NCBI RefSeq assembly: GCF_000027125.1
Contig: NC_017626.1
DNA: 64,000 bases
From: Escherichia coli 042
Lineage (GTDB): Bacteria; Pseudomonadota; Gammaproteobacteria; Enterobacterales; Enterobacteriaceae
Direction: 5' to 3' (one strand)
Position 1 is the first letter of the stretch. Every line of letters starts with the position of its first letter. The notes beneath the pieces are model-generated. The model searched no databases and was not told where the DNA came from. It saw only the letters and a program-made list of their open reading frames with translations. Positions 557 to 41,301 of this stretch are shown here, piece by piece. The translations under genes and the position numbers were made by a program.

Positions 557-560
557 TGGA

Positions 561-776
561 TTACTCTCCTCTCGCAGCCTTACGCCTGTCTTCTTTAATC
601 TTGAAATAAAGATTTGTCAGATACGTCAGCAGGCCAAAAACCAGGCTACCCAGCACACCGATTGCAGCCCACTGTGACGGAGTTACTTTATCGAGTAACT
701 GCAATGCCCAGAAACCAGCATTACCCGCCGATGTGCCATAGGCAACACCTGTTGTTAACTTATCCATTGATTTCAT
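561..776 (-). CDS. essQ: Phage holin-like protein EssQ (71 aa)
   Basis: Translation [28 protein letters not shown]... with one TM segment; ATG at 774-776; upstream of lysis genes. Confidence 0.8.
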
Positions 777-995
777 ATCCTCACCCCGATGTACACGGAT
801 GGTGCAATATGTTTGAAAAGATCGGAGTCTACGGGGTAGTTTTGACAGCACACGTTGTTCTCAACGGCGCTAAAAAAACATACACATTAAAAATGTGGGT
901 AATTATTTTGAAAGAAAGTCATATATAAAATAATAATACGAGAAATGTTTTCATATTTAGTGTACTGTATACGGCCATTTATACAGGAAAAGCCT

Positions 996-1166
996 ATGTC
1001 AGAACGTAAAAACTCAAAATCACGCCGTAATTATCTCGTTAAATGTTCCTGCCCAAACTGCACCCAAGAGTCAGAACACAGTTTTTCAAGAGTACAAAAA
1101 GGTGCCCTTTTGATCTGCCCTCATTGCAACAAAGTATTCCAGACAAATCTTAAAGCTGTAGCCTGA
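996..1166 (+). CDS. Hypothetical small zinc-ribbon protein (two CxxC pairs)
   Basis: MSERKNSKSRRNYLVKCSCPNCTQ...ICPHCNKVF; AGGAAAA SD-like upstream; followed by hairpin near 1230-1252. Confidence 0.4.
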   Translation: MSERKNSKSRRNYLVKCSCPNCTQESEHSFSRVQKGALLICPHCNKVFQTNLKAVA

Positions 1167-1529
1167 TTGATTTTATTAGTAACAAGTATTTTTTATATTT
1201 TAATAATATATTTAAAGCAGATAATAAAAAACCCGCCTGAGCGGGTTTGAGATTGTGGTGCTTTTTGTGGGAGTCATCCACTTACGCACTTTGTTTTGCC
1301 ATGCCAGCAGTTAGCTTCTGCTGTAAAACTATTCATGCAGCAAACCTGCACTTCACCACAATGGTTAGCATACTTTTCCTGATTAAGATTTTGCCAAATA
1401 TGCTAGCCATTGTTTCATGTATTGGACCTCCTTACTTTTTATTAAAGAGATCCAATATTCACTACTCTGTCCGTATCTCTACTCAGGCATCAGCCTTCTT
1501 CGTTATCGTATACAGACGAGCGATGAATT

Positions 1530-1745
1530 TTAATCAGTAATGATGACATTTGCTGCTGCAGGACCTTTAGCACCACTCTCTATAGAGAAGGTAACCTTTT
1601 GACCTTCAAATAAGGTTCGATAATTATCATTCTGAATCGCAGAAAAATGCACAAACACATCTTTACTACCATCAACAGGAGAAATAAAGCCGAAACCTTT
1701 ATCAGCGTTAAACCATTTTACTAAACCAGTCATTTTATTTGACAT
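1530..1745 (-). CDS. cspB: Cold shock protein CspB
   Basis: Full-length CSD protein [21 protein letters not shown]...; recalled identity. Confidence 0.95.
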
Positions 1746-2045
1746 TCTACATTCCTTAACTTGAGCCTTTCGGCATAAATGGTTTGCATAACAGAAACGA
1801 CTTCGTACTTAATTGGAGAGACTCAAAGAAGGAATAAGTGAATAACACCTGAAATGAGAACTGCTTTAGTAAACTACTTCGTATATCGTCTGTTCTTCAA
1901 ACCGACGCAATCATTAACGCATAGTTGAACATATGAAGCAATGTTTATTTTAGACATCCAGCCATCTTCAACCCCATCAAAAAACTATAGCTTTCTTCAG
2001 GAACGTGTGTATAGTGCGCCAAGTTATCAGTATTAAGGAATTTTT

Positions 2046-2258
2046 TTGTCCCGTAAAATGACAGGAATTGTCAAAACCTTTGACGGCAAAAGCGGCAAGG
2101 GTCTTATCACCCCATCCGATGGTCGTATCGATGTCCAGCTTCATGTTTCAGCGCTCAATCTCCGCGATGCAGAAGAAATTACCACCGGATTACGCGTGGA
2201 ATTTTGCCGGATAAATGGTCTGCGTGGCCCTTCAGCTGCCAATGTTTACCTTTCATGA
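2046..2258 (+). CDS. cspF: Cold shock protein CspF (TTG start)
   Basis: [23 protein letters not shown]...; divergent from cspB as in K-12. Confidence 0.9.
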
Positions 2259-2550
2259 GCTATATTAAAGCTTTAATTTCAGGCCCCATCGGATCACACA
2301 TGGAGAGTTTTTATGAATAACCCCGTCTGTCTTGATGACTGGTTGATTGGCTTTAAAAGCTTATGCTGTACTTTGGCCGTAATAGCTCTGCTAATAATAT
2401 AATAAGCAGACTCATTGTGTTTAGGGACATTGTACTGGAAGAAAACATTTTAAACATCAGGCAAATAACCAAGTCACCAGCTAAATAATAAGTTAACAGA
2501 CATGAGTCCCGGGATGAGATTCAACATTACCATTGCCCCATTTAAAGCAC

Positions 2551-2574
2551 AAAACCCGCTCATCAGCGGGTTTT
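2551..2574. terminator. Bidirectional Rho-independent terminator between cspF and quuQ
   Basis: aaaaCCCGCTcatcAGCGGGtttt hairpin flanked by A and T tracts. Confidence 0.55.
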
Positions 2575-2679
2575 CTACTTTTTCTTAACGTCGGGTATAC
2601 AAAGCCCATCGTTGAAAAAATTTTATCCATATTTTTTGAAAAATGCAAACATCATGTCGCCATCTTCAGCAAAAATCAT

Positions 2680-3432
2680 TTATCTCGTCACCTTCCTCAA
2701 TTGCGCTTCCGCGTATGCTTCTTCCTGCCAGCACTTTGTTACCAGTTTACCAATGACGTCCGCATACCCCTTATACCACTGATAATCGGTCAGGTCTGGT
2801 ACCAGCTTCTGGACATGACGTCGTGCCAGCGTGGTCGGTAAACGACTAAACCGGTTTCCATTACAACGCCCACAAATCTTATATACCGGTACGCCATGAA
2901 ACCGGGTTCTTTTTTCATCCAGAACAATCCCTTTACCCTTACACCCTCTGCACGCTGTGCTGGCTTCGCCCTTACCATGGCAATGCTGACATAGTTCCTT
3001 CACCCATTCTTCCTTGATTACAGATTCCCCGCGTCTGTAGTGTTTCACCACTTCGCGCAATACATTATAAAATCCCGTACCTGAACAATGCTCACAGCGA
3101 GCCTTACTTGCCGCAGACCTGGAGTAATCAGCAAAGGCAAAACTCACGAGGTAAGGAATAATCTGTAACCGGATTTCTTCACTCAATTTGTTCAATGTCG
3201 GGTTATCCAGTGCCATCGCGTAATTTAGCAGGCCTTCAATCGCAAACTGAGGGTCCTGAACACCAACTTTTGCCAGAAATAAGGCCAACCCAAGTGGTGC
3301 TTTCGACTGCACCATCCCCTGCGCTGCCATTACATCCGTAATTGTTAAACAACCGGTGCCTGTCGCTGGAGCGTCATCGCTCAATTTTGGAGATTTTGGG
3401 GAGTAATATTTTGGTAAGGCTTCAAGGTTCAT
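2680..3432 (-). CDS. quuQ: Late-gene antiterminator Q homolog QuuQ (250 aa from MNLEALPKYY)
   Basis: Cys-rich zinc-binding region CEHCSGTG...CQHCHGKG...CRGCKGKG...CGRCNG typical of Q proteins; recalled identity. Confidence 0.85.
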   Translation of the reverse strand: MNLEALPKYYSPKSPKLSDDAPATGTGCLTITDVMAAQGMVQSKAPLGLALFLAKVGVQDPQFAIEGLLNYAMALDNPTLNKLSEEIRLQIIPYLVSFAFADYSRSAASKARCEHCSGTGFYNVLREVVKHYRRGESVIKEEWVKELCQHCHGKGEASTACRGCKGKGIVLDEKRTRFHGVPVYKICGRCNGNRFSRLPTTLARRHVQKLVPDLTDYQWYKGYADVIGKLVTKCWQEEAYAEAQLRKVTR

Positions 3433-3445
3433 GCTCGTTCTCCAC

Positions 3446-4534
3446 TTACGCCAGTACGCCAATTGCCAGCGCGCGATCGATAAAACGAAATATCAGCTCC
3501 AGTTGGGAGCCATACTTATCTTCAAATGCCACTGTATCCGTATGCAGCTCGTTGTGATGCTTTCTGCACAAAGGCAACACAAAGAGATCATGTGCTTTTG
3601 TTCCCATTCCGCCCTGCCCGTGACCAATCAGATGATGCGGATCGTCGGCTGGCATACCGCAGCAAGCACACGGCTGTGTCTTAACCCAACGTGTGTATTT
3701 CTCCTTAACCCAGCGGCGACGTTTAGGCAGCTTCATGAAAGATTCCGGAGACTCTGGATCAACGGTGATGCTTACCACCGTCTTTTCCTGTGGTGATTTT
3801 TGTTGCTGGTGGGCGTAAGGCAACGGTGCAAGATTTTTTGTGCGTTGTTTCAATATGCTGGTGGCGGTCTGCTCTCCCGGTACGATGTCGCTTTCGCGGT
3901 ACACCGAGCAGATTTTTTCCGCTGGTAATCCCAGCGAACGACGCGATACAGCCTCAGGTAGTGCATCCACCACCTGATTGCAGACCGCCCACCAGGATAA
4001 TTCAGCCAAAGATAATTCCCGCTCCTGCGTACCGCTTATTGCGTGACGGATGACGTCAATCACCCATGCTGTCAGATTTTGTTGAGCAAGCAGCTCCAGT
4101 GATTCCGATGTCTGGTCACGCAGTTGGTTGTCGCAGTGCCAGCACAACACCATTGCGCCGGTACCATAACGGTGAATGACTGTTTCAGTGTGATGGTAAT
4201 CGCCATTAGGCCACTGGCAGGATGTAACATGACGTAATAGCCAGTCGGACAATGCGCCAACGCCGCCAGCAGCACGAATCACCCGTTCGTTACTAAAAAA
4301 CGGCAGCAATGTTTTGTCTTCCGCCAGCGGCTGGCGAACGGCAGGAACGACTCCGGATGGCAGATTACGCATGCTTTTTGGTTCCGGTTCCACCAGCACT
4401 CGAGGATTATGAAATATCTGTATGGATTCACGGCCCGGCTTAAGGACCACCAGCCCAAGCTCAGGCACCAGAACAGGTCTAAGTAATACCCGCACGTTAC
4501 CTCCAGATCCGTTGCTGGAAAGTGCGGGACGCAC
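3446..4534 (-). CDS. ydfU: Qin prophage DUF968-type protein YdfU (start may be internal to ORF)
   Basis: 362-aa ORF with CACCGMPADDPHHLIGHGQGGMGTKAHD motif; recalled YdfU. Confidence 0.75.
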   Translation of the reverse strand: MRPALSSNGSGGNVRVLLRPVLVPELGLVVLKPGRESIQIFHNPRVLVEPEPKSMRNLPSGVVPAVRQPLAEDKTLLPFFSNERVIRAAGGVGALSDWLLRHVTSCQWPNGDYHHTETVIHRYGTGAMVLCWHCDNQLRDQTSESLELLAQQNLTAWVIDVIRHAISGTQERELSLAELSWWAVCNQVVDALPEAVSRRSLGLPAEKICSVYRESDIVPGEQTATSILKQRTKNLAPLPYAHQQQKSPQEKTVVSITVDPESPESFMKLPKRRRWVKEKYTRWVKTQPCACCGMPADDPHHLIGHGQGGMGTKAHDLFVLPLCRKHHNELHTDTVAFEDKYGSQLELIFRFIDRALAIGVLA

Positions 4535-4775
4535 GTGGTGGGCGTTCGGAATAAGGCAGCCTGACAGAGATTATCCAGTGCCGATAGTCGAGACTGAGAG
4601 CTTTCTTAACCTCGAACCCGCGCCTGCGGTAAGAATGAATCAGCCATTCGGCCTGTTCTGCAGTGCATGGAGGGTGCTGGAACCATTCAGACTTGAATGC
4701 GTGAGAATACCGCCCGTGCGTGCAGGCAAGAACGGGCGAATTATCAGAATTGTAATATTTTGCGTTGCGTGCCAT
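4497..4775 (-). CDS. rem: Small prophage protein Rem-like
   Basis: 92-aa ORF immediately upstream of ydfU in K-12 order; identity by position and recollection only. Confidence 0.45.
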   Translation of the reverse strand: MARNAKYYNSDNSPVLACTHGRYSHAFKSEWFQHPPCTAEQAEWLIHSYRRRGFEVKKALSLDYRHWIISVRLPYSERPPRASRTFQQRIWR

Positions 4776-4841
4776 CGGTTTTCTCCGGTGGCACGGTGTT
4801 ACTCAGCGGGAGTTCAGCCCCGCGCAAGATTGTAGATGAGT

Positions 4842-5093
4842 TTATTCTCCTGAAAAAGCAGAAAAGCCAGCTTTTATTCCGATCTCTTTCAATGCCTGTA
4901 ATGAAGTGACAAACTCACCTTCGCGCAAGATAAATCCGTCCGTGACCCGAGCATCCACAAAATTAATTAACGCAGCCCCATTCTTTCGCAAACACATAAT
5001 GCGGTAATGACTAACAAGATTTCCATTTTCAACGCACACAGCATAGAGGCCATCTTCACAAAAAATTTTACGCAGTTCTTCGATGTTCATCAT
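4842..5093 (-). CDS. Hypothetical protein (83 aa)
   Basis: ORF only; lies downstream of the hokD terminator; no recognisable motif. Confidence 0.3.
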   Translation of the reverse strand: MMNIEELRKIFCEDGLYAVCVENGNLVSHYRIMCLRKNGAALINFVDARVTDGFILREGEFVTSLQALKEIGIKAGFSAFSGE

Positions 5094-7364: not shown

Positions 7365-8678
7365 TCAATCTTTTTTATCGGGATCAGGCTTCTTTTTAGG
7401 TAACTTCGGGGGCTTAACTTGCTGATGACTTTGCGTTCGGCGCGTAAGCCAGGGATGGTCAGCTTTAGGTTTAACATAGTATTTTGAGCGTAAATCAATA
7501 CGGGCATTATCCACTCGTTCATGGACACTCTTTTCATCATCCAGTGGTATAGGCTCCGGGCCATCAACATACTTTTCCCAGCCCAGCGCTTTCCCGTCAT
7601 ACAGAACGTTAATTTCACCGTCAAAGTTCTCGCATACAGTAACAACCGAATGCCTAAGTCGATATCCCCGGCCCTCACTGCGTACCTGAAACGCACTGCT
7701 TTTGTACTGGAAAGTGAGATTTTTAGACAGAACGCGCTTCGCCTGTAGGCTGAAGATATAACCCAGTTCCTCTTCAGAATGGTGCACATCAAGATGAGCA
7801 TTATCAGTAGTACGAGGCGACGTAGCGAACCGGTTGTTATAGGCTTCAATAAAGGTCGGCAACCATGCATTTGCTGTTTCAATATCACTGATATTCTGAA
7901 GCCGCATTTCTTTGACCAGCCTGTCCTGTAGTGTCTGATTGGCGCGCTCTACCCGCCCTTTTGCCTGCGGGCTGTTGGCATGGATTGGCTCGATGCCCAG
8001 TGTCTTTATCGCACGAGTGAACTGGGTCAGCTCACCTTCCCGCTCTGGGTTATTTACCCTGAATATACTGTGTCTATCAGAGTAGAGAGCGAGCGGTACG
8101 CCATGATCATTAAGGTAACCCCGGAGGGTTTCCATGTAAGCCCGGGTTGTTTCAGCAGGCACAAAACGCAACGCCATCAACGCACTGGTGGCATCATCAA
8201 TGAAAACGATCAGTGTACATCTGGGGCCTCGATTTTCAAACCAGTCATGAGGTGAGCCATCAATCTGGATCAGTTCACCGTAAGATGGTCGTCGCATGCG
8301 GCGTTGATATATACGGGCAATTTTACGACGGCGTTCACGCCATAACCCCTCTTCTACCATCCACTTTCTGAGAGTTTCAACGGATAAAGATAAACCGTGT
8401 ATCTCGCGCAATTTTTCGCACGCAAACGTAGGTCCAAAATCAGCGTAACGGCCTTTGAGGAGTGAAATTACTGTTGCTCTGAATTCAGTAGAAAAGGAAT
8501 TATTAGGACGCTTTCCACGTCGGTGGGAAACCAGACCAGAAGGCCCTTCATTTCTATACCGTTGCACCAGACGTTTAACCTGCCGAATAGAAATGCCAAT
8601 GCGTGCCGCAGCTTGTTCCTGAATAATCTGAAGTCGGTGGAGTTCCTTATGACTCATCGTAACAGTCTCTTTGATCAT
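7365..8678 (-). CDS. DDE (rve-type) transposase, 437 aa, IS481/ISNCY-like
   Basis: N-terminal HTH (RIGISIRQVKRLVQRY) plus integrase-core DDE region (LIQIDGSPHDWF...LIVFIDDATS...SDRHSIF...GRVERANQTL); absent from K-12 at this position by recollection. Confidence 0.7.
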   Translation of the reverse strand: MIKETVTMSHKELHRLQIIQEQAAARIGISIRQVKRLVQRYRNEGPSGLVSHRRGKRPNNSFSTEFRATVISLLKGRYADFGPTFACEKLREIHGLSLSVETLRKWMVEEGLWRERRRKIARIYQRRMRRPSYGELIQIDGSPHDWFENRGPRCTLIVFIDDATSALMALRFVPAETTRAYMETLRGYLNDHGVPLALYSDRHSIFRVNNPEREGELTQFTRAIKTLGIEPIHANSPQAKGRVERANQTLQDRLVKEMRLQNISDIETANAWLPTFIEAYNNRFATSPRTTDNAHLDVHHSEEELGYIFSLQAKRVLSKNLTFQYKSSAFQVRSEGRGYRLRHSVVTVCENFDGEINVLYDGKALGWEKYVDGPEPIPLDDEKSVHERVDNARIDLRSKYYVKPKADHPWLTRRTQSHQQVKPPKLPKKKPDPDKKD

Positions 8679-10344: not shown

Positions 10345-10701
10345 TTAAAAAATCAGAACGCCGTGCGGCCTCAACACCCGAAAGGCTTCTTTAAATCTCT
10401 GTCGCGAATCATCACGCCAGGCATCTTTATTCAGCCGTCCATATTTCTTTCCCATCCAGGCGTTATCACCAACACTCTCAAGATGCGGAGGGTCTAATAC
10501 AACCATCGAAAAAGATGCGTCTGCAAATGATAATGCACGAAAATCTGCGATAATGTCAGGGCTGATAATCAAGCGTCTCCCATTGCGTAATGTGTATCCT
10601 TCTTTTCTGATATCGCTGAATATCGCCCGTTCGTCAGACTTATCGAACCAGAACATGCGGCTGCCACAGCACATATCAAGAATGGTTGCCGGTGCACTCA
10701 C
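10345..10701 (-). CDS. Small SAM-dependent methyltransferase-like protein (118 aa), probably phage DNA MTase
   Basis: Motif I-like ILDMCCGSRMFW and motif IV-like VVLDPPH; nin-like region of lambdoid prophage. Confidence 0.45.
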   Translation of the reverse strand: MSAPATILDMCCGSRMFWFDKSDERAIFSDIRKEGYTLRNGRRLIISPDIIADFRALSFADASFSMVVLDPPHLESVGDNAWMGKKYGRLNKDAWRDDSRQRFKEAFRVLRPHGVLIF

Positions 10702-11120
10702 TGCGCCACGTCCTGAAAATTACCCTGATAGAAAGCCAGTATGCGCTGCATAACTTCGCTCTTCCGGCACTCGCGACAGATTATGTTTAGGCGACTGTCG
10801 TAGCGACGTATTTCTCCGTCAGGTGATGACCAGATAAGGTCCGGATCAACCACAGCAGGTTTCTTCACCTTTGCCCTCGAGAGTTTTTTGCGGGCGTTTT
10901 GCCAGTCCTTACGCGCCTGTTCAGAGGGGAATAACCCGTAGCCGGAGTTGTATACATCGCCACTGGCTACCAGCTCTCTGGCAAGAACGCTCATCAGATA
11001 TCTAGTCGCACCTGTTTTAGCTTCCAGTTGCCGTAACGTCTCACGGCCGCTCTGGCGCACGAGTTCCACCACCTGCCATTTAATTTTTTCCCGCTCTTCT
11101 TGTGTAAAAACTTTTGCCAC
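10698..11120 (-). CDS. Hypothetical phage early protein (140 aa)
   Basis: ORF in operon with replication gene; stop overlaps downstream gene start. Confidence 0.45.
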   Translation of the reverse strand: MAKVFTQEEREKIKWQVVELVRQSGRETLRQLEAKTGATRYLMSVLARELVASGDVYNSGYGLFPSEQARKDWQNARKKLSRAKVKKPAVVDPDLIWSSPDGEIRRYDSRLNIICRECRKSEVMQRILAFYQGNFQDVAQ

Positions 11121-11160
11121 AAGTCCCCCTTAAAATTACCTCATGACCTGAAATCAACAC

Positions 11161-12126
11161 TTATCCTCTGAAACCAGGCGGAATTTCTGTATCCGGTTCA
11201 GAAATATGATTAACACAACGCTGTACAGGTGAACGTCCCAGGCGGATGACCAGTTCGTCCCATTTTTCGCGGAGCTTTGACGGGCTCATGATGTTTTTGA
11301 CCCAGAATGGATCTCGCTGAACCCGACCAAACATTTCGCAAATTTGTCTGTGGCTTCTGCCATCCAGCATCCGCATTGTGCGCACGTCATTGGCCCAGGC
11401 AGTCCAGTTAGGCTCTTTTGGTCGCATGATCTCGCCATCATCACTGGCTGCCTGTTCGTAGAGACCCACGATCCGCCCCCAGATCCACTGCGCACACGCC
11501 AAATCCTCCCTGCTACCCCACTGGCGTTTTTTCGCACTAAACACAACCGCGTCGGAGTTCCGGGTTAAAAAATCCTGTTCAGTCGTCTGCGGGTCCGGTT
11601 GCGAAGCTTCCGGACGAAAAGTGTTTTTATTCTCTGTAGTAGTCTCTGTTGTATTCTCTGTAAGATCATCAGGCCATTTTGACCCGATGACATTGGGTCG
11701 TTTTGAACCAATGGAGCGTTTCATTTTGACCTCTTCCATCGTGTCATTTTGACCTGATGGAGCGGCGCATTTTGAACCGATGGATTCGCTCAATTTGCCA
11801 CCATCTAAAAGCTCGCTCCCATAGTTGATCGTGTAGAAATTGGTCATATCGCGCTTTGATTTATTGAGCTTTTCACAACGCAAAAGCCCCAGCGTTTTCA
11901 GACTTGCAAACGCGCGCTTTAACGTTGACTCTGACCAGAATGGGAACTGTTCCAGCCATTGTTCCGTTGTGTTATAAATCCAGCGAACACCATCACATTC
12001 CATGCCGGAGTTGGTATCTCTCAACCAGTAGTGCAGTTGTTGCAAAACAATGGCTTCGTTTAAGCCAATTTTCATTGCCAGCTGCGTGTTTATAACCAGT
12101 GGGCGTTCAGCAAAAAGAAGGCTCAT
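11161..12126 (-). CDS. Putative phage replication initiation protein (HTH N-domain)
   Basis: Position downstream of cro-like dicC; N-terminal region LNEAIVLQQLHYWLRD...WIYNTTEQWLEQFPFWSESTLKRAF resembles replisome-organiser HTH domains; start chosen at MSLLFAERP. Confidence 0.5.
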   Translation of the reverse strand: MSLLFAERPLVINTQLAMKIGLNEAIVLQQLHYWLRDTNSGMECDGVRWIYNTTEQWLEQFPFWSESTLKRAFASLKTLGLLRCEKLNKSKRDMTNFYTINYGSELLDGGKLSESIGSKCAAPSGQNDTMEEVKMKRSIGSKRPNVIGSKWPDDLTENTTETTTENKNTFRPEASQPDPQTTEQDFLTRNSDAVVFSAKKRQWGSREDLACAQWIWGRIVGLYEQAASDDGEIMRPKEPNWTAWANDVRTMRMLDGRSHRQICEMFGRVQRDPFWVKNIMSPSKLREKWDELVIRLGRSPVQRCVNHISEPDTEIPPGFRG

Positions 12127-12628
12127 AATTCCATCCAGCTTTTTGTTGGTATTGCTGTCGATACGCAAGTTTGAAAGCAATTGCTTTTTCTATAAGTTCG
12201 TCAGTTTCACGATCCACTACGGCAGGATCAGCAAAAAGCAGTCCGGACTCCACCACATCGCCATATTCTTTGTTTAACCCGGCGATCATGCACGTGATGC
12301 TTTTTCCGTCAGTAATTTCACGATACAACCTGAAATCATTAATCCGGATAGCCTCCATAATTGCAGGCACTAGCGCCGTGAACTTTTCACGCTTATCCCT
12401 GGTGTCGATAGCCTTCCAGCGTTCAAATATCTTCACTCGATTAACGCCAAGCGCTCGCTGATCAATCGCGCCACCTTCATATGTGACACGCTGAACATCG
12501 ATGTTCGGGCGCTCTTTCAAAGCCCAGAATGCTTCAGTGATTAATATCGTCGCCTGCTCCTGTGTCATTCCTGGTCGACATATCCAGGCATCCAGAGCCT
12601 CACGAGCCTGTTCAGGAGTGATTTTCAT
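12107..12628 (-). CDS. Phage early protein, YdfX-like (173 aa)
   Basis: ORF directly downstream of dicC in same operon. Confidence 0.45.
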   Translation of the reverse strand: MKITPEQAREALDAWICRPGMTQEQATILITEAFWALKERPNIDVQRVTYEGGAIDQRALGVNRVKIFERWKAIDTRDKREKFTALVPAIMEAIRINDFRLYREITDGKSITCMIAGLNKEYGDVVESGLLFADPAVVDRETDELIEKAIAFKLAYRQQYQQKAGWNYEPSFC

Positions 12629-12842
12629 TGTTCAACCGCCCCGCCCGCTTCGTCTTACGATATTCATCATAAACTTTGGGATCATACTGAAGCTCCCCGC
12701 CAGATGCCTCCTGTAGACGCATCGCGCGACCTTCGGGAACTAAATCCCCTTTCCAGCTATAAAGCGAAGCCAAACGAATACCTGCTGCTTGTGCAAGTTT
12801 TGTTTTTGAACCGAAATACAAAAGAGCGTCAGTTTTAAGCAT
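12612..12842 (-). CDS. dicC: Cro-like repressor DicC
   Basis: 76 aa MLKTDALLYFGSKTKLAQAAGIRLASLYSWKGDLVPEGRAMRLQEASGGE...; divergent from dicA. Confidence 0.9.
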   Translation of the reverse strand: MLKTDALLYFGSKTKLAQAAGIRLASLYSWKGDLVPEGRAMRLQEASGGELQYDPKVYDEYRKTKRAGRLNNENHS

Positions 12843-12925
12843 TTAAAACACCTTTATTGTTAGCCATAACTAACAAGATAGATGTTAACAAAAACATAGT
12901 CAATACGATTTAGCATTAGCTAACT

Positions 12926-13333
12926 ATGGAAACAAAAAATTTAACTATCGGCGAACGCATCAGGTATCGTCGGAAAAACCTCAAACACACCCAAAGGTCT
13001 CTTGCTAAAGCCCTGAAAATCTCCCATGTGTCTGTATCACAATGGGAACGGGGTGATAGTGAACCTACAGGGAAGAACCTTTTTGCCCTCAGCAAAGTAT
13101 TGCAATGCTCACCAACATGGATTCTATTTGGCGATGAAGACAAGCAACCAACACCACCTGTTGAGAAGCCAGTTGCCTTATCCCCCAAAGAACTAGAGCT
13201 CCTTGAGCTGTTTAATGCACTGCCAGAATCAGAACAGGATACCCAGCTCGCCGAAATGCGAGCTCGAGTAAAAAACTTCAATAAACTCTTTGAAGAATTA
13301 CTAAAAGCCCGTCAGCGGACAAATAAAAGATAA
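12926..13333 (+). CDS. dicA: CI-like HTH repressor DicA
   Basis: 135 aa METKNLTIGERIRYRRKNLKHTQRSLAKALKISHVSVSQWERGD...; recalled identity. Confidence 0.95.
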   Translation: METKNLTIGERIRYRRKNLKHTQRSLAKALKISHVSVSQWERGDSEPTGKNLFALSKVLQCSPTWILFGDEDKQPTPPVEKPVALSPKELELLELFNALPESEQDTQLAEMRARVKNFNKLFEELLKARQRTNKR

Positions 13334-13499: not shown

Positions 13500-13655
13500 A
13501 TGGATACTATCGATCTTGGCAACAACGAATCTCTGGTGTACGGCGTGTTTCCAAACCAGGACGGCACGTTCACCGCAATGACGTATACCAAAAGCAAAAC
13601 GTTTAAAACCGAAAATGGTGCCCGTCGCTGGCTGGAAAGAAACTCAGGTGAGTGA
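13500..13655 (+). CDS. ydfA: YdfA (51 aa)
   Basis: MDTIDLGNNESLVYGVFPNQDGTFTAMTYTKSKTFKTENGARRWLERNSGE. Confidence 0.8.
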   Translation: MDTIDLGNNESLVYGVFPNQDGTFTAMTYTKSKTFKTENGARRWLERNSGE

Positions 13656-13656
13656 T

Positions 13657-13785
13657 ATGGATTTCGACACAATCATGGAAAAGGCTTACGAAGAATACTT
13701 CGAAGGCCTTGCCGAAGGCGAAGAAGCTCTCAGCTTCAGTGAGTTTAAACAGGCGCTTTCCAGTTCGGCAAAATCTAACGGCTGA
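13657..13785 (+). CDS. ydfB: YdfB (42 aa)
   Basis: Hand translation MDFDTIMEKAYEEYFEGLAEGEEALSFSEFKQALSSSAKSNG. Confidence 0.75.
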   Translation: MDFDTIMEKAYEEYFEGLAEGEEALSFSEFKQALSSSAKSNG

Positions 13786-13814
13786 TAAGCGAAACAGCAC
13801 CGCGAGGAATCAGT

Positions 13815-14033
13815 ATGCAGAAACGAGAACCCGTCATCATCGCGCCAGACTATACCGATGATGAACTTTATGAGTGGATGCGCCAGAAAATTAATGCAGC
13901 GCAGGATCTGAAATGGGCTAATGAAGCCAGGGCTAAGCAGGCTGAAAATCTGTCCGCTCTGGAGCAGGATATCACCAATCTGGAAAAAGCAGCGGCATTA
14001 AGCATTGCCAGAATGATTACATACCCGCGTTAG
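13815..14033 (+). CDS. ydfC: YdfC (72 aa)
   Basis: MQKREPVIIAPDYTDDELYEWMRQKINAAQDLKWANEARAKQAENLSALEQDI... Confidence 0.85.
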   Translation: MQKREPVIIAPDYTDDELYEWMRQKINAAQDLKWANEARAKQAENLSALEQDITNLEKAAALSIARMITYPR

Positions 14034-14373
14034 TAGCTAATCAACAAAGCTAAGGTTAGTAATTAAGGAGTTCTCCACGGGTGAGGTGGAGTGCGTGCGC
14101 CGGACACGGGTGCGCATCCGGAACTGACAGTTTACTGAAAGGATATTTCCCTGAAAAGTCAGACCATAACGCGAAAGCGCACGGCGAGGTAGCTGGTTCA
14201 TAGATAGCCTGTCGTTAAATTTTCGTCGACCGTGCGCTTCCGGTTGTGGCAACCCGCGAAATGGCGCGGCGGTAAGTATGGCGGGGTTATTCCTTCCCCG
14301 TTGAGGACACCGGGTTGTCAGGTTGACCATACGCTTAAGTGACAACCCCGCTGCAACGCCCTCTGTTATCAAT

Positions 14374-14431
14374 TTTCTGGTGACGTTTGGCGGTATCAGT
14401 TTTACTCCGTGACTGCTCTGCCGCCCTTTTT
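14374..14431 (+). ncRNA. dicF: DicF small RNA (ftsZ-inhibiting sRNA of dicB operon)
   Basis: TTTCTGGTGACGTTTGGCGGTATCAGTTTTACTCCGTGACTGCTCTGCCGCCCTTTTT matches recalled DicF incl. terminator hairpin plus U-tract; boundaries approximate. Confidence 0.7.
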
Positions 14432-14600
14432 AAAGTGAATTTTGTGATGTGGTGAATGCGGCTGAGCGCACGCGGAACAGTTAAAACCAAAAACAGTGTT
14501 ATGGGTGGATTCTCTGTATCCGGCGTTAATTGTTAACTGGTTAACGTCACCTGGAGGCACCAGGCACTGCATCACAAAATTCATTGTTGAGGACGCGATA

Positions 14601-14789
14601 ATGAAAACGTTATTACCAAACGTTAATACGTCTGAAGGTTGTTTTGAAATTGGTGTCACTATCAGTAACCCAGTATTTACTGAAGATGCCATTAACAAGA
14701 GAAAACAAGAACGGGAGCTATTAAATAAAATATGCATTGTTTCAATGCTGGCTCGTTTACGTCTGATGCCAAAAGGATGTGCACAATGA
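14601..14789 (+). CDS. dicB: Cell division inhibitor DicB (62 aa)
   Basis: MKTLLPNVNTSEGCFEIGVTISNPVFTEDAINKRKQERELLNKICIVSMLARLRLMPKGCAQ. Confidence 0.9.
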   Translation: MKTLLPNVNTSEGCFEIGVTISNPVFTEDAINKRKQERELLNKICIVSMLARLRLMPKGCAQ

Positions 14790-14977
14790 ATTCAGCATTT
14801 GTGCTTGTTCTGACAGTTTTTCTTGTTTCCGGAGAGCCAGTTGATATTGCAGTCAGTGTTCACAGGACAATGCAGGAGTGTATGACTGCAGCAACCGAAC
14901 AGAAAATTCCCGGTAACTGTTACCCGGTCGATAAAGTTATTCACCAGGATAATATCGAAATCCCGGCAGGTCTTTAA
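14786..14977 (+). CDS. ydfD: YdfD (63 aa), small membrane protein
   Basis: MNSAFVLVLTVFLVSGEPVDIAVSVHRTMQECMTAATEQKIPGNCYPVDKVIHQDNIEIPAGL; start overlaps dicB stop. Confidence 0.8.
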   Translation: MNSAFVLVLTVFLVSGEPVDIAVSVHRTMQECMTAATEQKIPGNCYPVDKVIHQDNIEIPAGL

Positions 14978-15069
14978 AACAGTTCCGTAATAAATATCCG
15001 GTTTCATTCTTATATGCCAGCAATGGCAGGGATTTGTTCATCCTTAAATCTGTCATGAGGTTAAAACAA

Positions 15070-17541
15070 ATGAGTAAAGTCTTTATTTGCGCCGCTATTC
15101 CTGACGAACTGGCAACAAGGGAAGAAGGCGCTGTGGCTGTAGCCACAGCCATTGAAGCTGGCGACGAACGCCGTGCTCGAGCAAAATTTCACTGGCAATT
15201 CCTGGAACATTATCCGGCTGCTCAGGACTGCGCTTATAAATTTATTGTCTGCGAGGATAAACCTGGCATACCCCGCCCTGCCCTCGATTCATGGGATGCT
15301 GAATATATGCAGGAAAACCGCTGGGATGAGGAGTCTGCTTCTTTTGTCCCGGTTGAGACTGAATCCGATCCGATGAACGTCACTTTTGACAAGCTGGCCC
15401 CTGAAGTACAGAACGCTGTCATGGTTAAGTTCGACACATGTGAAAACATCACCGTTGATATGGTTATTAGCGCACAGGAATTGTTGCAGGAAGACATGGC
15501 AACATTCGACGGACATATCGTTGAAGCGTTGATGAAAATGCCAGAAGTTAACGCCATGTATCCGGAGCTTAAGTTGCACGCCATTGGGTGGGTTAAGCAT
15601 AAATGTATTCCTGGTGCTAAATGGCCCGAAATTCAGGCAGAGATGCGCATCTGGAAAAAACGTCGCGAAGGTGAACGCAAGGAAACCGGAAAATACACGT
15701 CTGTTGTTGATCTCGCCCGCGCCAGAGCCAATCAACAGTACACTGAAAATTCAACAGGAAAAATCAGCCCGGTCATTGCTGCCATTCATCGCGAATACAA
15801 GCAGACATGGAAAACACTGGATGACGAACTGGCCTACGCTCTCTGGCCTAGTGATGTGGATGCCGGAAACATTGACGGCAGCATCCATCGCTGGGCAAAA
15901 AAAGAAGTTATCGACAACGACCGCGAAGACTGGAAGCGTATCTCGGCATCAATGCGCAAACAGCCTGATGCCCTTCGCTACGACCGCCAAACTATTTTTG
16001 GCCTTGTCCGTGAGCGTCCGATCGACATTCACAAAGATCCCGTAGCACTGAACAAATATATCTGCGAATACCTGACGACAAAGGGCGTGTTTGAGAATGA
16101 AGAAACAGACCTGGGCACTGTTGATGTTCTCCAGTCATCAGAAACACAAACTGATGCAGTGGAAACTGAGGTATCTGATATCCCAAAAAATGAAACCGCG
16201 CCGGAAGCTGAACCATCTGTAGAGCGTGAGGGGCCGTTCTATTTCCTCTTCGCAGATAAGGACGGAGAAAAATACGGTCGCGCAAACAAACTCTCTGGTC
16301 TGGATAAGGCACTGGCTGCTGGCGCCACTGAAATCACAAAAGAAGAATATTTTGCCCGAAAAAATGGCACATACACGGGCTTACCGCAAAATGTAGATAC
16401 CGCTGAAGATTCAGAACAACCAGAGCCGATAAAAGTTACCGCTGACGAAGTAAACAAAATTATGCAGGCAGCCAATATCAGCCAGCCTGACGCCGATAAG
16501 TTGCTTGCTGCATCACGTGGTGAATTTGTTGAAGGGATTAGTGACCCGAATGATCCGAAATGGGTTAAGGGGCTCCAGACCCGCGATTCTGTGAACCAGA
16601 ACCAGCATGAATCGGAACGGAACTACCAAAAAGCGGAACAAAACAGTCCAAATGCGTTACAAAACGAGCCAGAAACGAAACAGCCTGAACCAGTAGCGCA
16701 ACAGGAAGTGGAAAAAGTCTGCACCGCCTGCGGTCAGACCGGCGGCGGCAACTGCCCTGATTGTGGCGCGGTGATGGGCGACGCAACATACCAAGAAACA
16801 TTCGATGAAGAGTATCAGGTTGAAGTTCAGGAAGATGATCCGGAGGAAATGGAAGGCGCTGAACATCCACACAAGGAGAACACTGGCGGCAATCAGCATC
16901 ACAATAGCGATAATGAAACTGGCGAGACGGCAGATCACCCAATTAAGGTGAACGGTCATCACGAAATCACATCCACCAGCAGGACGTGTGACCATCTAAT
17001 GATCGACCTTGAAACCATGGGAAAAAATCCTGATGCCCCGATCATCTCAATAGGTGCAATATTTTTCGATCCGCAAACCGGAGATATGGGACCGGAATTT
17101 AGTAAGACTATCGATCTGGAAACTGCTGGCGGAGTCATTGATCGGGACACCATTAAATGGTGGCTTAAGCAATTACGCGAAGCGCAATCTGCCATTATGA
17201 CCGATGAAATCCCGTTAGATGATGCACTGTTACAATTGCGAGAATTTATCGACGAAAACTCCGGTGAATTTTTTGTTCAGGTTTGGGGAAATGGAGCCAA
17301 CTTCGACAACACGATTTTGCGCCGTTCATACGAACGGCAGGGGATCCCCTGCCCGTGGCGTTACTACAACGATCGCGATGTACGCACAATCGTTGAGCTG
17401 GGGAAAGCCATAGACTTCGATGCCAGAACGGCTATTCCATTCGAAGGTGAGCGCCATAATGCACTTGATGACGCCCGTTACCAGGCAAAATACGTTTCAG
17501 TTATCTGGCAAAAACTGATCCCGAGTCAGGCTGATTCTTAA
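15070..17541 (+). CDS. ydfE: Intact YdfE-family protein with C-terminal DEDDh 3'-5' exonuclease domain (ORF-track frame 835 aa)
   Basis: N-terminus MSKVFICAAIPDELATREEG...; C-terminal motifs MIDLETMG, WGNGANFDNTIL, HNALDDARYQAKY; central CTACGQTGGGNCPDCG zinc ribbon and acidic linker. Confidence 0.7.
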   Translation: MSKVFICAAIPDELATREEGAVAVATAIEAGDERRARAKFHWQFLEHYPAAQDCAYKFIVCEDKPGIPRPALDSWDAEYMQENRWDEESASFVPVETESDPMNVTFDKLAPEVQNAVMVKFDTCENITVDMVISAQELLQEDMATFDGHIVEALMKMPEVNAMYPELKLHAIGWVKHKCIPGAKWPEIQAEMRIWKKRREGERKETGKYTSVVDLARARANQQYTENSTGKISPVIAAIHREYKQTWKTLDDELAYALWPSDVDAGNIDGSIHRWAKKEVIDNDREDWKRISASMRKQPDALRYDRQTIFGLVRERPIDIHKDPVALNKYICEYLTTKGVFENEETDLGTVDVLQSSETQTDAVETEVSDIPKNETAPEAEPSVEREGPFYFLFADKDGEKYGRANKLSGLDKALAAGATEITKEEYFARKNGTYTGLPQNVDTAEDSEQPEPIKVTADEVNKIMQAANISQPDADKLLAASRGEFVEGISDPNDPKWVKGLQTRDSVNQNQHESERNYQKAEQNSPNALQNEPETKQPEPVAQQEVEKVCTACGQTGGGNCPDCGAVMGDATYQETFDEEYQVEVQEDDPEEMEGAEHPHKENTGGNQHHNSDNETGETADHPIKVNGHHEITSTSRTCDHLMIDLETMGKNPDAPIISIGAIFFDPQTGDMGPEFSKTIDLETAGGVIDRDTIKWWLKQLREAQSAIMTDEIPLDDALLQLREFIDENSGEFFVQVWGNGANFDNTILRRSYERQGIPCPWRYYNDRDVRTIVELGKAIDFDARTAIPFEGERHNALDDARYQAKYVSVIWQKLIPSQADS

Positions 17542-17613
17542 TGTTCAACTGTCGCCGGTTGTGACTGGTATTCTGCAACCGGCGCTCGTCTGATGTAAGA
17601 GATAAAGAAATCG

Positions 17614-17865
17614 ATGAGCGAAGTAATCATGATTGTCTCTCCCGGCAAATGGGTATCCGAAGAGCAGTTAATTGCGCTGAAAGGAATAAAAAAAGGTACG
17701 TTAAAAAAGGCCCGAGAAAAATCGTTTATGGAAGGAAGGGAATATAAGTATGTCGCTCATGACGGTATGCCATGGGATAACAGTCCATGCTTTTACAACC
17801 TGGAAGAAATTGATCGCTGGATTGAGCGCCAGGCATCAGCGAGACCAAGACGTCATCTTACTTGA
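17614..17865 (+). CDS. Excisionase-like small protein (83 aa)
   Basis: Small basic protein immediately upstream of integrase gene. Confidence 0.45.
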   Translation: MSEVIMIVSPGKWVSEEQLIALKGIKKGTLKKAREKSFMEGREYKYVAHDGMPWDNSPCFYNLEEIDRWIERQASARPRRHLT

Positions 17866-17884
17866 CTAAAAGCCACACTAACTA

Positions 17885-19180
17885 ATGAGAGAAGTTGAAA
17901 TGAAATATCCGACAGGCGTGGAAAACCATGGAGGGAAATTACGTATCTGGTTTGTTTATAAAGACGTAAGAGTCAGGGAAAATCTGGGGGTTCCTGACAC
18001 AGCAAAAAACAGGCGCGTTGCAGGTGAACTACGCTCCTCTGTTTGTTACGCAATAAAAACTGGTGTTTTCGACTATGCAAAACAGTTTCCCTCCTCACGC
18101 AATCTGGAAAAATTTGGTGAGGCCCGACAAGATTTAACCATAAAAGAACTGGCTGAAAAATTTCTGGCACTGAAAGAAACTGAAGTCGCCAAAACATCAC
18201 TCAACACATACCGTGCCGTCATCAAAAATATCCTGAGCATAATCGGTGAAAAAAATCTTGCCTCATCGATTAATAAAGAAAAATTACTGGAGGTTCGTAA
18301 AGAGTTACTGACTGGATACCAGATCCCCAAAAGTAACTATATTGTTACACAACCAGGGAGATCGGCTGTAACTGTAAATAATTACATGACAAATCTTAAC
18401 GCCGTGTTCCAGTTTGGTGTTGATAACGGTTACCTGGCAGATAATCCGTTTAAGGGGATCTCGCCATTAAAGGAATCAAGAACCATTCCGGATCCTCTTT
18501 CGCGGGAAGAATTTATCCGTCTTATCGATGCGTGCAGAAATCAGCAAGCAAAAAATTTATGGTGTGTTTCTGTTTATACTGGAGTTCGCCCTGGTGAGCT
18601 GTGTGCACTTGGATGGGAGGACATAGATCTGAAAAATGGAACAATGATGATCAGGAGAAATTTAGCAAAAGACCGTTTCACGGTACCAAAAACACAGGCG
18701 GGAACCAATCGGGTCATTCATCTTATTAAGCCAGCAATCGACGCTCTCCGGAGTCAGATGACATTAACGAGACTGAGCAAAGAGCATATCATTGATGTTC
18801 ACCTCAGAGAGTATGGCAGAACAGAAAAACAAAAATGCACCTTTGTTTTTCAACCTGAAGTGTCAGCGAGAGTAAAAAATTATGGTGACCATTTTACCGT
18901 TGACTCAATAAGGCAGATGTGGGACGCAGCGATAAAACGTGCCGGACTCCGCCATCGAAAATCATATCAGTCGAGACATACTTATGCCTGCTGGTCGCTG
19001 ACAGCTGGTGCTAACCCGGCATTTATAGCAAACCAGATGGGCCATGCAGATGCGCAAATGGTATTTCAGGTATACGGAAAATGGATGTCTGAAAACAATA
19101 ATGCACAGGTAGCTTTGTTAAATACACAGTTAAGCGAGTTTGCCCCAACCATGCCCCATAACGAAGCAATGAAAAATTAA
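17885..19180 (+). CDS. intQ: Prophage tyrosine integrase IntQ (apparently intact)
   Basis: 431-aa ORF with C-terminal tyrosine-recombinase catalytic region (…GVRPGELCALGWEDIDL…HTYACWSLTAGANPAFIANQMGHADAQMVFQVYGKW); adjacent to rspB as in K-12. Confidence 0.85.
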   Translation: MREVEMKYPTGVENHGGKLRIWFVYKDVRVRENLGVPDTAKNRRVAGELRSSVCYAIKTGVFDYAKQFPSSRNLEKFGEARQDLTIKELAEKFLALKETEVAKTSLNTYRAVIKNILSIIGEKNLASSINKEKLLEVRKELLTGYQIPKSNYIVTQPGRSAVTVNNYMTNLNAVFQFGVDNGYLADNPFKGISPLKESRTIPDPLSREEFIRLIDACRNQQAKNLWCVSVYTGVRPGELCALGWEDIDLKNGTMMIRRNLAKDRFTVPKTQAGTNRVIHLIKPAIDALRSQMTLTRLSKEHIIDVHLREYGRTEKQKCTFVFQPEVSARVKNYGDHFTVDSIRQMWDAAIKRAGLRHRKSYQSRHTYACWSLTAGANPAFIANQMGHADAQMVFQVYGKWMSENNNAQVALLNTQLSEFAPTMPHNEAMKN

Positions 19181-19367
19181 TTTAATATTTATCAAATAGT
19201 TAACACGCATGACTCTTGAAATCCATAAATTCAAGCGCAGTGCCCAGCCATCCCGATACTGCTGCTTTCACCAAATCCTTAGTGCTTCTTTCGTGTTTTT
19301 CTATTGTCATAATGGTTATCTCTAAAAAAGAGGTAAGATGCGTACTACTTACTCGCCGTTATTGGTA

Positions 19368-40530: not shown

Positions 40531-40593
40531 TTTCACTTAACGCATTGATTTAATTAAATGATTTGCACTACAAAAAGTGCCATAAATCGCAAA

Positions 40594-40617
40594 ATGACTA
40601 CACCAGTGACTACACCG
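40594..40617. repeat. Arm-type tandem repeat ATGACTACACC-AGTGACTACACCG near attL
   Basis: Same 23-24 nt tandem motif present at 51395-51418 near attR in same orientation. Confidence 0.55.
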
Positions 40618-40980: not shown

Positions 40981-40986
40981 TACTCG

Positions 40987-41268: not shown

Positions 41269-41301
41269 TGTGCCCCCATCGCTCTGATAGTCTGGTGTCG
41301 T

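Follow-up and report, generated by a model that had tools for sequence, protein, structure and literature searches.

The first 19,233 positions of the DNA analyzed here, a stretch of 64,000 nucleotides from Escherichia coli 042 (below, the window), very probably belong to prophage 042p4 of this enteroaggregative strain and make up its right arm, which extends from the lysis genes to int; 042p4 is a Qin-type lambdoid temperate phage that sits within ydfJ, next to rspB. Positions 15070-19180 are the end that carries the integrase gene. The prophage is lambda-like, looks complete and is the undamaged version of what remains in K-12 as Qin. The element itself is already known; it is real but ordinary, and as a prophage nothing new, given the 2010 description of 042p4 and the later isolation of near-identical viruses.

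The window corresponds to positions 1,792,001-1,856,000 of the 042 chromosome, and the published coordinates agree with it after a shift by exactly 1,792,000. In the genome paper, 042p4 is ROD26, located at 1763886..1811200 (47,315 bp) and harboring an exonuclease gene at 1807070..1809541 (2472 bp); it was called highly homologous to Qin and apparently has all genes for a functional phage (Chaudhuri et al. 2010, PMC2808357). The exonuclease and excisionase proteins of the window are exactly those of strain 042 with accessions CBG34553.1 and CBG34554.1. The published insertion site, termed a "palindromic repeat", can here be narrowed down to a core of 11 bp within ydfJ, and the exonuclease gene (Ec042-1724) was entered as cargo in Table 2 of that paper (PMC2808357); otherwise there is no difference from the element in the window. 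Among 5426 complete E. coli genomes, the intact module is carried by 2284 and the K-12 scar by 342.

Gene content and relation to Qin of K-12

The genes are listed in Table 1. All of them, from the lysis cassette to int, are open except the moron flxA, an ISNCY transposase remnant and two small pseudogenes, where the remnant and both pseudogenes also occur in the phage record PhiR42_1. The lysis and Q genes that are complete within the window are all open. The 4.1 kb at 15070-19180 are the distal part of the leftward early operon that is read from a dicA-controlled promoter through ydfABC, DicF, dicB, ydfD and the exonuclease gene to xis and int. Derepression would occur via the antirepressor Rem acting on DicA, not by self-cleavage of the repressor.

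Table 1. Features of the right arm of 042p4 and its attachment site (window positions)
Feature	Position	Strand	Basis or remark
late-control and lysis block	1..5093	-	includes ydfR and cspB/cspF morons
rrrQ lysozyme, cut by window start	1..248	-	
essD holin	561..776	-	
ydfT, Q antiterminator	2680..3432	-	
ydfU	3446..4495	-	
antirepressor rem	4842..5093	-	role of Rem from PMC10448788
ISNCY-family transposase remnant	7365..8678	-	
replication and early-right module, without K-12 counterpart	10345..12628	-	
SAM methyltransferase	10345..10701	-	
DUF977	10698..11120	-	
O-like, 321 aa	11161..12126	-	
YdaT-family	12107..12628	-	
immunity region, divergent genes, both open	12612..13333	.	dicC + dicA
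dicC, P22_Cro family	12612..12842	-	
dicA repressor, HTH_3 / Phage_CI_repr	12926..13333	+	
upstream part of leftward early (dicBF) operon ending exo-xis-int	13500..14977	+	ydfA, ydfB, ydfC, DicF, dicB, ydfD
DicF sRNA	14375..14426	+	Rfam RF00039, 76.7 bits
dicB	14601..14789	+	
ydfD	14786..14977	+	
exonuclease, 823 aa (Ec042-1724; full-length form of K-12 ydfE)	15070..17541	+	ORF, Pfam, PHROG
excisionase-family gene, 83 aa (DUF1233 / phrog_539)	17614..17865	+	phrog_539 E 4e-34, PF06806
tyrosine integrase, 426 aa (RefSeq start 17900; 431 aa from ATG 17885); full-length form of K-12 intQ	17900..19180	+	phrog_1 E 4e-75, PF12167, PF00589
5' fragment of ydfJ (K-12 annotation ynfP), cut off from gene remainder by prophage	19200..19310	-	translation MTIEKHERSTKDLVKAAVSGWLGTALEFMDF...
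attR core GAAATCCATAA, crossover region inside ydfJ next to rspB	19218..19228	.	attR (window) vs attL (K-12) vs attP (PhiR42_1)

The original prediction described an uninterrupted ORF of 835 codons in the ydfE frame with a C-terminal DEDDh domain, followed by an xis-like gene and a 431-aa integrase, and all three are indeed free of internal stops. It had also taken dicA/dicC and the replication genes to be intact, in agreement with their open reading frames in the window. It proposed to inspect ~20 kb upstream for structural genes; because the window begins inside the lysozyme gene rrrQ, the upstream part measures ~15 kb, and all of its genes are early, regulatory, moron or lysis genes. From lambdoid gene order, the head and tail genes of 042p4 would lie beyond the left edge of the window, and its head, tail and terminase genes are presumed intact from the 2010 paper (PMC2808357) and from relatives.

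In K-12, ydfE and intQ, described as remnants in the original prediction, are annotated pseudogenes of strain MG1655 with IS2E between them. K-12 is devoid of the sequence at window positions 15837-18020, where it has a 706-bp IS2E remnant, and of that at 7550-12348, which holds the replication module. Both deletions are missing here, which directly shows that decay has gone less far in this prophage than in Qin of K-12, as claimed. Integration site and genes are the same in Qin and 042p4, with 99.9% identity where both exist (dicA/C, the dicBF operon, relBE, hokD, Q and the lysis cassette), and comparison with PhiR42_1 reveals that ~21 kb are missing from Qin, from within nohA to within stfQ. 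As judged from these alignments, Qin of K-12 derives from this same element: the 3' part of the exonuclease gene, xis and the 5' end of int were lost in an event associated with IS2, and two further deletions occurred.

A near-identical relative is PhiR42_1 (PV340562), with 99.91% identity over window positions 1-19233; the two differ by 16 substitutions, and indels are absent up to the att junction. Its gene order is that of the window, including the ISNCY remnant, and its Int protein is identical; changes of its own are found in ydfU, in a gene for a 92-aa hypothetical protein and in the ISNCY remnant. The record carries attP as well as lambda-like head and tail genes, and the attP junction, together with the duplication of ~0.78 kb at its ends, shows a circular form. 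The PhiR phages served as a panel of plaque-forming temperate phages (PMC13190303). In strain 537-20, a right arm that is 99.9% identical is found together with a full lambda-like set of head and tail genes. The module is also present, at 98.8-99.4% identity, in HannyBb (PP925841), Tritos (OV696610) and mEp460_ev081 (LR597641), the last of which is a functional temperate phage (PMC10448788). In mEp460_ev081, the xis-int stretch (17600-19233) is 98.8% identical, the block at 14168-19233 (DicF, dicB, ydfD, exo, xis, int) 94.7% and the exonuclease 88.8%. This phage shares the O-like/DUF977 replication module and rem with 042p4, but its head genes are HK97-like, not lambda E/D, and it does not harbor the relBE-flxA-ISNCY block.

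Integration, excision and lineage-private changes

The integrase is composed of an arm-DNA-binding domain (PF12167) and a catalytic domain (PF00589). The catalytic residues R230, K264, Y356-x-x-R359, H382 and the nucleophile Y392 are present, where the first His of the HxxR motif is replaced by Tyr, which also holds for PhiR42_1, whose Int is identical. The putative excisionase is so assigned from its family name and its position immediately upstream of int. Int would recombine attP with attB in ydfJ, and the DUF1233 protein would direct the reverse reaction, i.e., excision. The att core is located 37 bp past the int stop codon, and the same core is found in K-12 attL and in PhiR42_1 attP; the match to the phage records stops at 19233, and the attL of strain 042 falls outside the window. 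The reconstituted empty attB is uninterrupted in 2011 of the 5426 genomes, in which ydfJ is intact.

The 19.2 kb of the right arm contain nine substitutions private to the window: four nonsynonymous, one nonsense (flxA E45*), three synonymous and one, at 12864, in the dicC/dicA intergenic control region. The private amino-acid changes include H46Y in xis, S702L in the exonuclease and I162T in the O-like protein, and neither H46Y nor S702L is seen in PhiR42_1 or strain 537-20. Column 702 of the exonuclease is moderately conserved: 67 of 112 homologues have Ser there, and the six most frequent residues do not include Leu. Any of H46Y, S702L, I162T or the base in the dicC/dicA control region could impair function. 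It is thus conceivable, though we consider it rather doubtful, that the prophage, in spite of its intact look, is grounded in this strain, i.e., that private mutations or a defect of the left arm block excision, replication or virion production, and that the open frames of int, xis and the exonuclease gene only reflect a recent onset of decay. The private changes, the flxA nonsense mutation among them, fit such a state, as does the literature, where we found no report of induction of or plaque formation by 042p4. Against it, the essential-looking genes of the right arm are all open and the Int sequence is that of PhiR42_1. Furthermore, the variant proteins are found on 67-72 contigs and the private variants therefore represent a stable lineage allele, while the ratio of five protein-altering to three synonymous changes is based on too small a count to point to relaxed selection. 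The genome paper, too, judged 042p4 complete (PMC2808357).

The exonuclease

The exonuclease ORF spans 15034..17541 and contains 835 codons when read from a TTG; the ATG at 15070 yields the 823-aa protein, a start that agrees with RefSeq WP_000048342 and with the 823-position PHROG profile phrog_2082, which is matched end to end. The protein consists of a YdfE_N/YdfE_C region followed by the C-terminal domain, and the precomputed domains are PF27430, PF27432 and PF16473. Residues 642-813 match PF16473 (Rv2179c-like 3'-5' exoribonuclease) with an E value of 6e-66, and the DEDDh residues D646, E648, D746, H796 and D801 are all there, in columns kept in 107-111 of 112 diverse homologues. The sole sequence match in the PDB is 8KEL, named 'Exodeoxyribonuclease' (E 1e-5). 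Further upstream, in the YdfE_N/YdfE_C region, residues 262-627 are 39% identical to residues 277-591 of RecE (BLASTP), where the alignment stops at RecE residue 591. On these sequence data, the protein is a RecE-like N-terminal region joined to a predicted DEDDh (DnaQ-like, Rv2179c/DexA-type) 3'-5' exonuclease domain.

The gene occupies the position of the lambda Red genes, with the first ~620 residues of the product including a stretch homologous to the non-catalytic part of RecE and the last ~180 constituting the DEDDh domain. No annealase gene adjoins it, and xis starts 72 bp downstream. A nuclease-only, Tritos-type Rec module as well as DnaQ-like nucleases have been described in lambdoid phages (PMC12315714). 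Position and homology suggest that the protein most likely assists the phage in recombination or in the processing of DNA ends, as a nuclease-only 'Tritos-type' factor, and that it is neither cargo nor exonuclease VIII. The fit of PhiR42_1 to the Chi-dependent lifestyle proposed for the Tritos class is imperfect because only four Chi sites are found on one strand and two on the other, compared to 7-21 on the top strand in that class (PMC12315714). The substrate could also be RNA, given that PF16473 is named for an exoribonuclease.

The listing as cargo in Table 2 of the genome paper (PMC2808357) would imply a gene that benefits the host or counteracts defense, possibly by degradation of nucleic acids of the host or of competitors, or by processing of dicBF-operon RNA. 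The exoribonuclease name of PF16473 would suit this reading, the gene shares an operon with the processed sRNA DicF, and 3'-5' exonucleases mostly inhibit, rather than promote, recombination (PMC12315714). However, we consider a cargo function unlikely: the gene sits in the canonical slot of the Rec module, with early genes on one side and xis/int on the other, its N-terminal scaffold is common to RecE, a recombination protein, and its conservation in at least 17 phage records across several immunity types speaks against it.

In the GenBank records of PhiR42_1 and Tritos, this ORF is labeled exonuclease VIII, i.e., the 5'-3' recombination exonuclease RecE. That the 042p4 protein is RecE is highly improbable in spite of the shared middle region and a partial match of residues 246-623 to NCBIfam NF007259: the match scores 281.6, below the curated cut-off of 1269, and covers only profile positions 271-600, and recT is absent after the exonuclease gene, where xis is found instead. 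At the sequence level, the assignment is thereby rejected. The nuclease domain of RecE comprises roughly residues 606-866, with a PD-(D/E)XK fold, and begins just past residue 591; the alignment ends at this residue, and the C-terminus of the 042p4 protein is the DEDDh domain instead. RecE of the prophage Rac shares with the exonuclease the middle region, including the CxxC...CPDC motif, and is likewise encoded upstream of xis/int within the early-left operon. It is, however, annotated as a 5'-3' dsDNA exonuclease, and recE is followed by recT, whereas the 042p4 protein has a swapped DEDDh 3'-5' catalytic domain and no RecT partner.

The tqsA island and its possible helper

In strain 042, ROD27 (11,025 bp) sits in the tqsA homologue and also fits the window offset (PMC2808357). 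The original prediction proposed the Qin-like prophage as a lambda-like helper for this island. EcCICFT073-type (Rpp) PICIs have lambda or phi80 as helpers (PMC6092414, PMC6739421). Rpp is known to bind lambda Nu1. By sequence features, 042p4 is a plausible candidate helper: lambda-type cos and Nu1 are found in the Qin-type phage, as read from the proxy PhiR42_1, not from 042p4 itself. Strain 042 has three other lambdoid prophages (PMC2808357), which could equally be the helper.

The island itself is, by its predicted gene content, an EcCICFT073-type satellite with lambda-type cos sites: it shares with EcCICFT073 two cos sites, an Rpp homologue and genes of the capsid-like and decoration-like kinds. 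Its RppC homologue matches PDB entry 6HLK (E 9e-31). Nu1 (TerS) of PhiR42_1 is ~98% identical to that of lambda, and the two lambda-type cos segments of the island contain an exact cosN, which PhiR42_1 has as well, and closely match the cos of this phage.

Identity and gene content of the prophage

The Qin-type lambdoid prophage whose right arm occupies window 1-19233, from the lysis genes to int, is a known and ordinary element of its kind, 042p4 (also named ROD26). The exact sequences of its exonuclease, i.e., the full-length form of K-12 ydfE, and of its excisionase are those of CBG34553.1 and CBG34554.1 (UniProt D3GTE4_ECO44 and D3GTE5_ECO44), which originate from enteroaggregative E. coli O44:H18 strain 042. 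In the genome publication, 042p4 is located at 1763886..1811200 (47,315 bp), the "putative exonuclease" Ec042-1724 at 1807070..1809541, and a second element, ROD27/042p5, at 1832521..1843545, intragenic in Ec042-1748 (PMC2808357). After subtraction of 1,792,000 from these coordinates, the exonuclease falls at 15070..17541 and ROD27 at 40521..51545, which are exactly the coordinates of the ORF and of the tqsA insertion mapped independently here. Because of this agreement, we place the window at nucleotides 1,792,001-1,856,000 of the 042 chromosome. The same publication states that 042p4 seemingly harbors every gene required for a functional phage (PMC2808357); since the element was thus described as apparently complete, the finding is already in the literature for strain 042, published with the genome in 2010. 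It therefore has little weight as a discovery, also because near-identical viable phages are on record and the module is widespread, but it is useful as context for the Qin deletions, for correction of the exonuclease VIII annotation and for the location of a lambda-cos prophage near a satellite.

The exonuclease, an excisionase-like protein and a 431-aa integrase are encoded by uninterrupted ORFs at the positions originally predicted (see the table); no internal stops were seen in any of the three. The ATG at 15070 is the RefSeq start of the exonuclease and gives a protein of 823 aa, which matches the 823-position PHROG profile phrog_2082 from end to end.

Features of the 042p4 right arm and the tqsA island (window positions)
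Feature	Position	Strand	Details
Exonuclease ORF	15034..17541	+	835 codons counted from TTG
Excisionase-family ORF	17614..17865		83 aa
Tyrosine-integrase ORF	17885..19180		431 aa; 426 aa from ATG 17900
Attachment-site common core	19218-19228		GAAATCCATAA; 37 bp past int stop
ynfP (K-12 "gene")	19200-19310	-	cut-off 5' end of ydfJ
flxA	6596-6928	+	private nonsense substitution (1), E45*, at 6728
Nonsynonymous private substitutions (4)			ISNCY I108V, O-like I162T, exonuclease S702L, xis H46Y
ISNCY transposase remnant	7365-8678	-	open 437-codon frame
Rfam sok antitoxin match; hok stretch	8752-8923; 5310-5465	-	sok match 104 bits, 3.3 kb from hokD
tqsA island	40521-51545		integrase, primase-helicase, SSB-like protein, Nu3-like fragment
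tqsA island, capsid homologue			lambda-E-like; 43% identical to PhiR42_1 gpE
tqsA island, decoration homologue			gpD-like
RppC homologue	41548-41982	-	143 aa; PDB 6HLK, E 9e-31
lambda-type cos segments	41333; 42072	+; -	inverted, ~75 bp; exact cosN GGGCGGCGACCT

The start of the window falls within the lysozyme gene rrrQ, and the genes found over the 15 kb that precede the exonuclease are confined to lysis, Q, moron (csp, relBE, hokD, flxA), replication and immunity functions. In the lambdoid gene order, cos and the terminase, head and tail genes are found beyond the lysis cassette, i.e., here to the left of position 1. In the related E. coli strain 537-20, a right arm with 99.9% identity to that of the window is joined to a left arm carrying a complete lambda-like set of head and tail genes. 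The phage record PhiR42_1 (PV340562) aligns with window 1-19233 in a single block at 99.91% identity, differing by 16 substitutions and free of indels up to the att junction, and its Int protein is identical to that encoded in the window. Its lambda-like genes are Nu1, A, W, B, C/Nu3, D, E, FI, FII, Z, U, V, G, T, H, M, L, K, I, J, lom, stf and tfa, and its ~47.9 kb of unique sequence agree with the 47.3 kb published for 042p4. The ends of the record repeat over ~0.78 kb (1-783 and 47888-48668), as would those of an untrimmed circular assembly. The first 1012 bp run into the left end of Qin across ...TTGAAATCCATAATTCACAGG..., i.e., the attP junction.

Other phages carry the same genes: in HannyBb, Tritos and mEp460_ev081 the xis-int region is 98.8-99.4% identical to the window at the DNA level, and the exonucleases are 88.8-99.6% identical as proteins. 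Phage mEp460_ev081, which originates from infant faeces, is described as functional and temperate (PMC10448788), and PhiR phages served as a plaque-forming temperate panel (PMC13190303). The viability of PhiR42_1 is supported by the latter paper together with the GenBank record and the attP junction. Near-identical relatives of 042p4 are viable phages found in GenBank.

The common core of the attachment site was identified by comparing attR (window), attL (K-12) and attP (PhiR42_1). The attP junction reads ...GACTCTTGAAATCCATAATTCACAGGTG..., and the restored attB in ydfJ reads ...AACTGGAAATCCATAAATTCAAGCG.... When the left flank from K-12 and the right flank from the window are joined, the resulting sequence is found without interruption, within an intact ydfJ adjoining rspB, in 2011 of 5426 complete E. 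coli genomes.

Comparison with K-12 Qin and condition of the 042 copy

In MG1655, ydfE and intQ are annotated pseudogenes with an IS2E remnant between them. Upon direct alignment, identity to K-12 is 99.9% for window 1-7549 and 12349-15836 and 98.4% from 18021 on, and the segments 7550-12348 and 15837-18020 are absent from K-12. The first absent segment carries YdaT-family, O-like, DUF977 and methyltransferase genes and the ISNCY transposase remnant; the second takes in 1.7 kb at the 3' end of the exonuclease gene, xis and the initial 121 bp of int (136 bp if counted from the upstream ATG at 17885). From this alignment and the MG1655 annotation, the statement that ydfE and intQ are remnants in K-12 was correct, as was the main inference that the prophage in the window is less decayed than K-12 Qin, because segments deleted in K-12 are present here. 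We confirm the observation, and the reading given to it in the original prediction is supported. The element also shows which three deletions made K-12 Qin out of an active phage. The 4.25-kb module, counted where at least 80% was covered in one place, occurs in 2284 of the 5426 complete E. coli genomes (about 42%); in the same collection, 509 genomes cover the complete 20-kb arm and 342 the K-12-type scar ydfE'-IS2-'intQ. Of the two states, the intact one is the common one, and that of K-12 is derived.

A live alternative is that 042p4 looks intact but is inactive in strain 042, and the main reason for keeping this reading is found in the substitutions private to the window copy. There are nine of these relative to both PhiR42_1 and strain 537-20, of which three are synonymous. 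Column 702 of the exonuclease is occupied by Ser in 67 of the 112 homologues aligned; Leu is outside its six most frequent residues. The variant proteins were found on 67-72 contigs and hence represent lineage alleles, not sequencing errors. The ratio of five protein-altering to three synonymous private substitutions was rejected as a signal of selection, the sites being too few.

Among the genes concerned, flxA is intact in K-12, PhiR42_1 and strain 537-20, and a contig that shares the exonuclease allele of the window is also without a flxA gene call. The dicC/dicA intergenic region is the expected site of the immunity-switch operators and promoters, and a private C at 12864 (T in PhiR42_1 and strain 537-20) is located in this 83-bp control region. 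The ISNCY remnant contains a stop in the PhiR42_1 copy, and RefSeq flags the copy of relatives as partial; as the remnant is present in a phage record, it is no bar to propagation. The sok/leader and hok stretches are contiguous in mEp460_ev081; in the window they are parted by a block of relBE, ydfV, flxA, ydfW and the ISNCY remnant (about 5480-8752), and from K-12 the sok part is gone entirely.

DicA, an HTH protein of 135 aa, is opposed by the antirepressor Rem, the trigger of which is given as not known (PMC10448788). A search for LexA boxes yielded only three weak CTG-N10-CAG sites, none of them upstream of rem, which fits that statement. Because there is no convincing LexA box and derepression would be Rem-based, induction with mitomycin C, as put forward in the original prediction, gains no support and is not guaranteed.

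The exonuclease and its likeness to RecE

The C-terminal 180 residues of the exonuclease match Pfam PF16473 (Rv2179c-like 3'-5' exoribonuclease) with E 6e-66, and all five DEDDh positions (D646, E648, D746, H796 and D801) are present and conserved in 107-111 of 112 homologues, chosen as diverse representatives after 1.8 billion cluster representatives had been searched. The proposed C-terminal DEDDh exonuclease domain is thus borne out. For the identical protein, the newer Pfam families YdfE_N, YdfE_C and Rv2179c-like have been recorded.

The GenBank records of PhiR42_1 (CDS 2704-5175) and Tritos label this DEDDh exonuclease "exodeoxyribonuclease VIII" (RecE). Judged from the sequence, this label, found in several phage records, is wrong. 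The score for NCBIfam NF007259 is 281.6 against a cut-off of 1269 and covers profile positions 271-600 only. BLASTP aligns residues 262-627 to residues 277-591 of K-12 RecE and then stops, with 39% identity overall and about 85% over residues 467-620, including a CxxC...CPDC motif; the alignment ends just before what we take to be the RecE nuclease domain. Furthermore, recE is followed by recT in the K-12 prophage Rac, whereas the exonuclease gene is followed by xis.

Residues ~545-620 (window 16700-16930) form an acidic segment with the zinc-ribbon-like CxxC...CPDC motif, common to RecE. The stretch common to the two proteins comprises ~150 nearly identical residues directly before unrelated nuclease domains, and the comparison suggests that it may be a portable module at a swap junction.

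According to a 2025 survey, DnaQ-like 3'-5' nucleases occupy the recombination-module slot of lambdoid phages, and the "Tritos" type there consists of the nuclease only, without an annealase, SSB or anti-RecBCD gene (PMC12315714). Because phage Tritos carries the same protein at 98.9% identity, we assign the exonuclease to this class, and with that survey the best reading is that it would act as a DNA-end-processing accessory of the phage. The abundance of Chi sites reported for the Tritos class was not seen in the window arm (2 + 4 sites by strand) or in PhiR42_1 (4 on one strand, 2 on the other).

A two-part proposition, which we consider unlikely as a whole, is that the exonuclease is a natural domain swap, maybe not an enzyme of the Red/RecET type, and that 042p4, separately, may be a resident PICI helper. 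The N-terminal scaffold, including the zinc-ribbon-like segment, is alike in the two proteins, whereas RecE has a 5'-3' nuclease domain and the exonuclease a DEDDh 3'-5' domain with no annealase gene adjacent; it is because of the swapped nuclease and the lack of this neighbor that the enzyme may fall outside the Red/RecET type. Its role could be an uncharacterised phage function, e.g., end processing of opposite polarity, counter-defence or processing of dicBF-operon RNA.

The tqsA island and its candidate helper

The tqsA island, i.e., ROD27/042p5, was called a probable remnant of an "unstudied type" in 2010 (PMC2808357). No portal, protease, HNH, TerL or tail genes were found within it, and a capsid-forming PICI was rejected on the lack of the first four. 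The two cos segments flank rpp and closely match the cos of PhiR42_1. PICIs of the EcCICFT073 type carry two functional cos sites along with ORFs that resemble capsid and decoration genes; they are mobilised by lambda and phi80 and encode an Rpp, which binds lambda TerS so that packaging is redirected (PMC6092414, PMC6739421). The island, as read from its sequence, has the same capsid-like and decoration-like genes, two cos and Rpp, and fits a PICI of this (Rpp) type.

With PhiR42_1 cos and Nu1 as a proxy for 042p4, the helper role proposed earlier for this prophage can be assessed. PhiR42_1 Nu1 is ~98% identical to lambda Nu1 and retains Y50 and E65, at which mutations allow escape from Rpp. 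Because the rpp and cos of the island and the cos and Nu1 of PhiR42_1 match the EcCICFT073-lambda pattern, a Qin-type phage would be a credible helper. However, strain 042 has three further lambdoid prophages (PMC2808357), any of which may equally act as the helper. The distance from 042p4 to the Rpp-type PICI in tqsA is 21 kb, which places a lambda-cos prophage close to an Rpp-type satellite in a pathogen.
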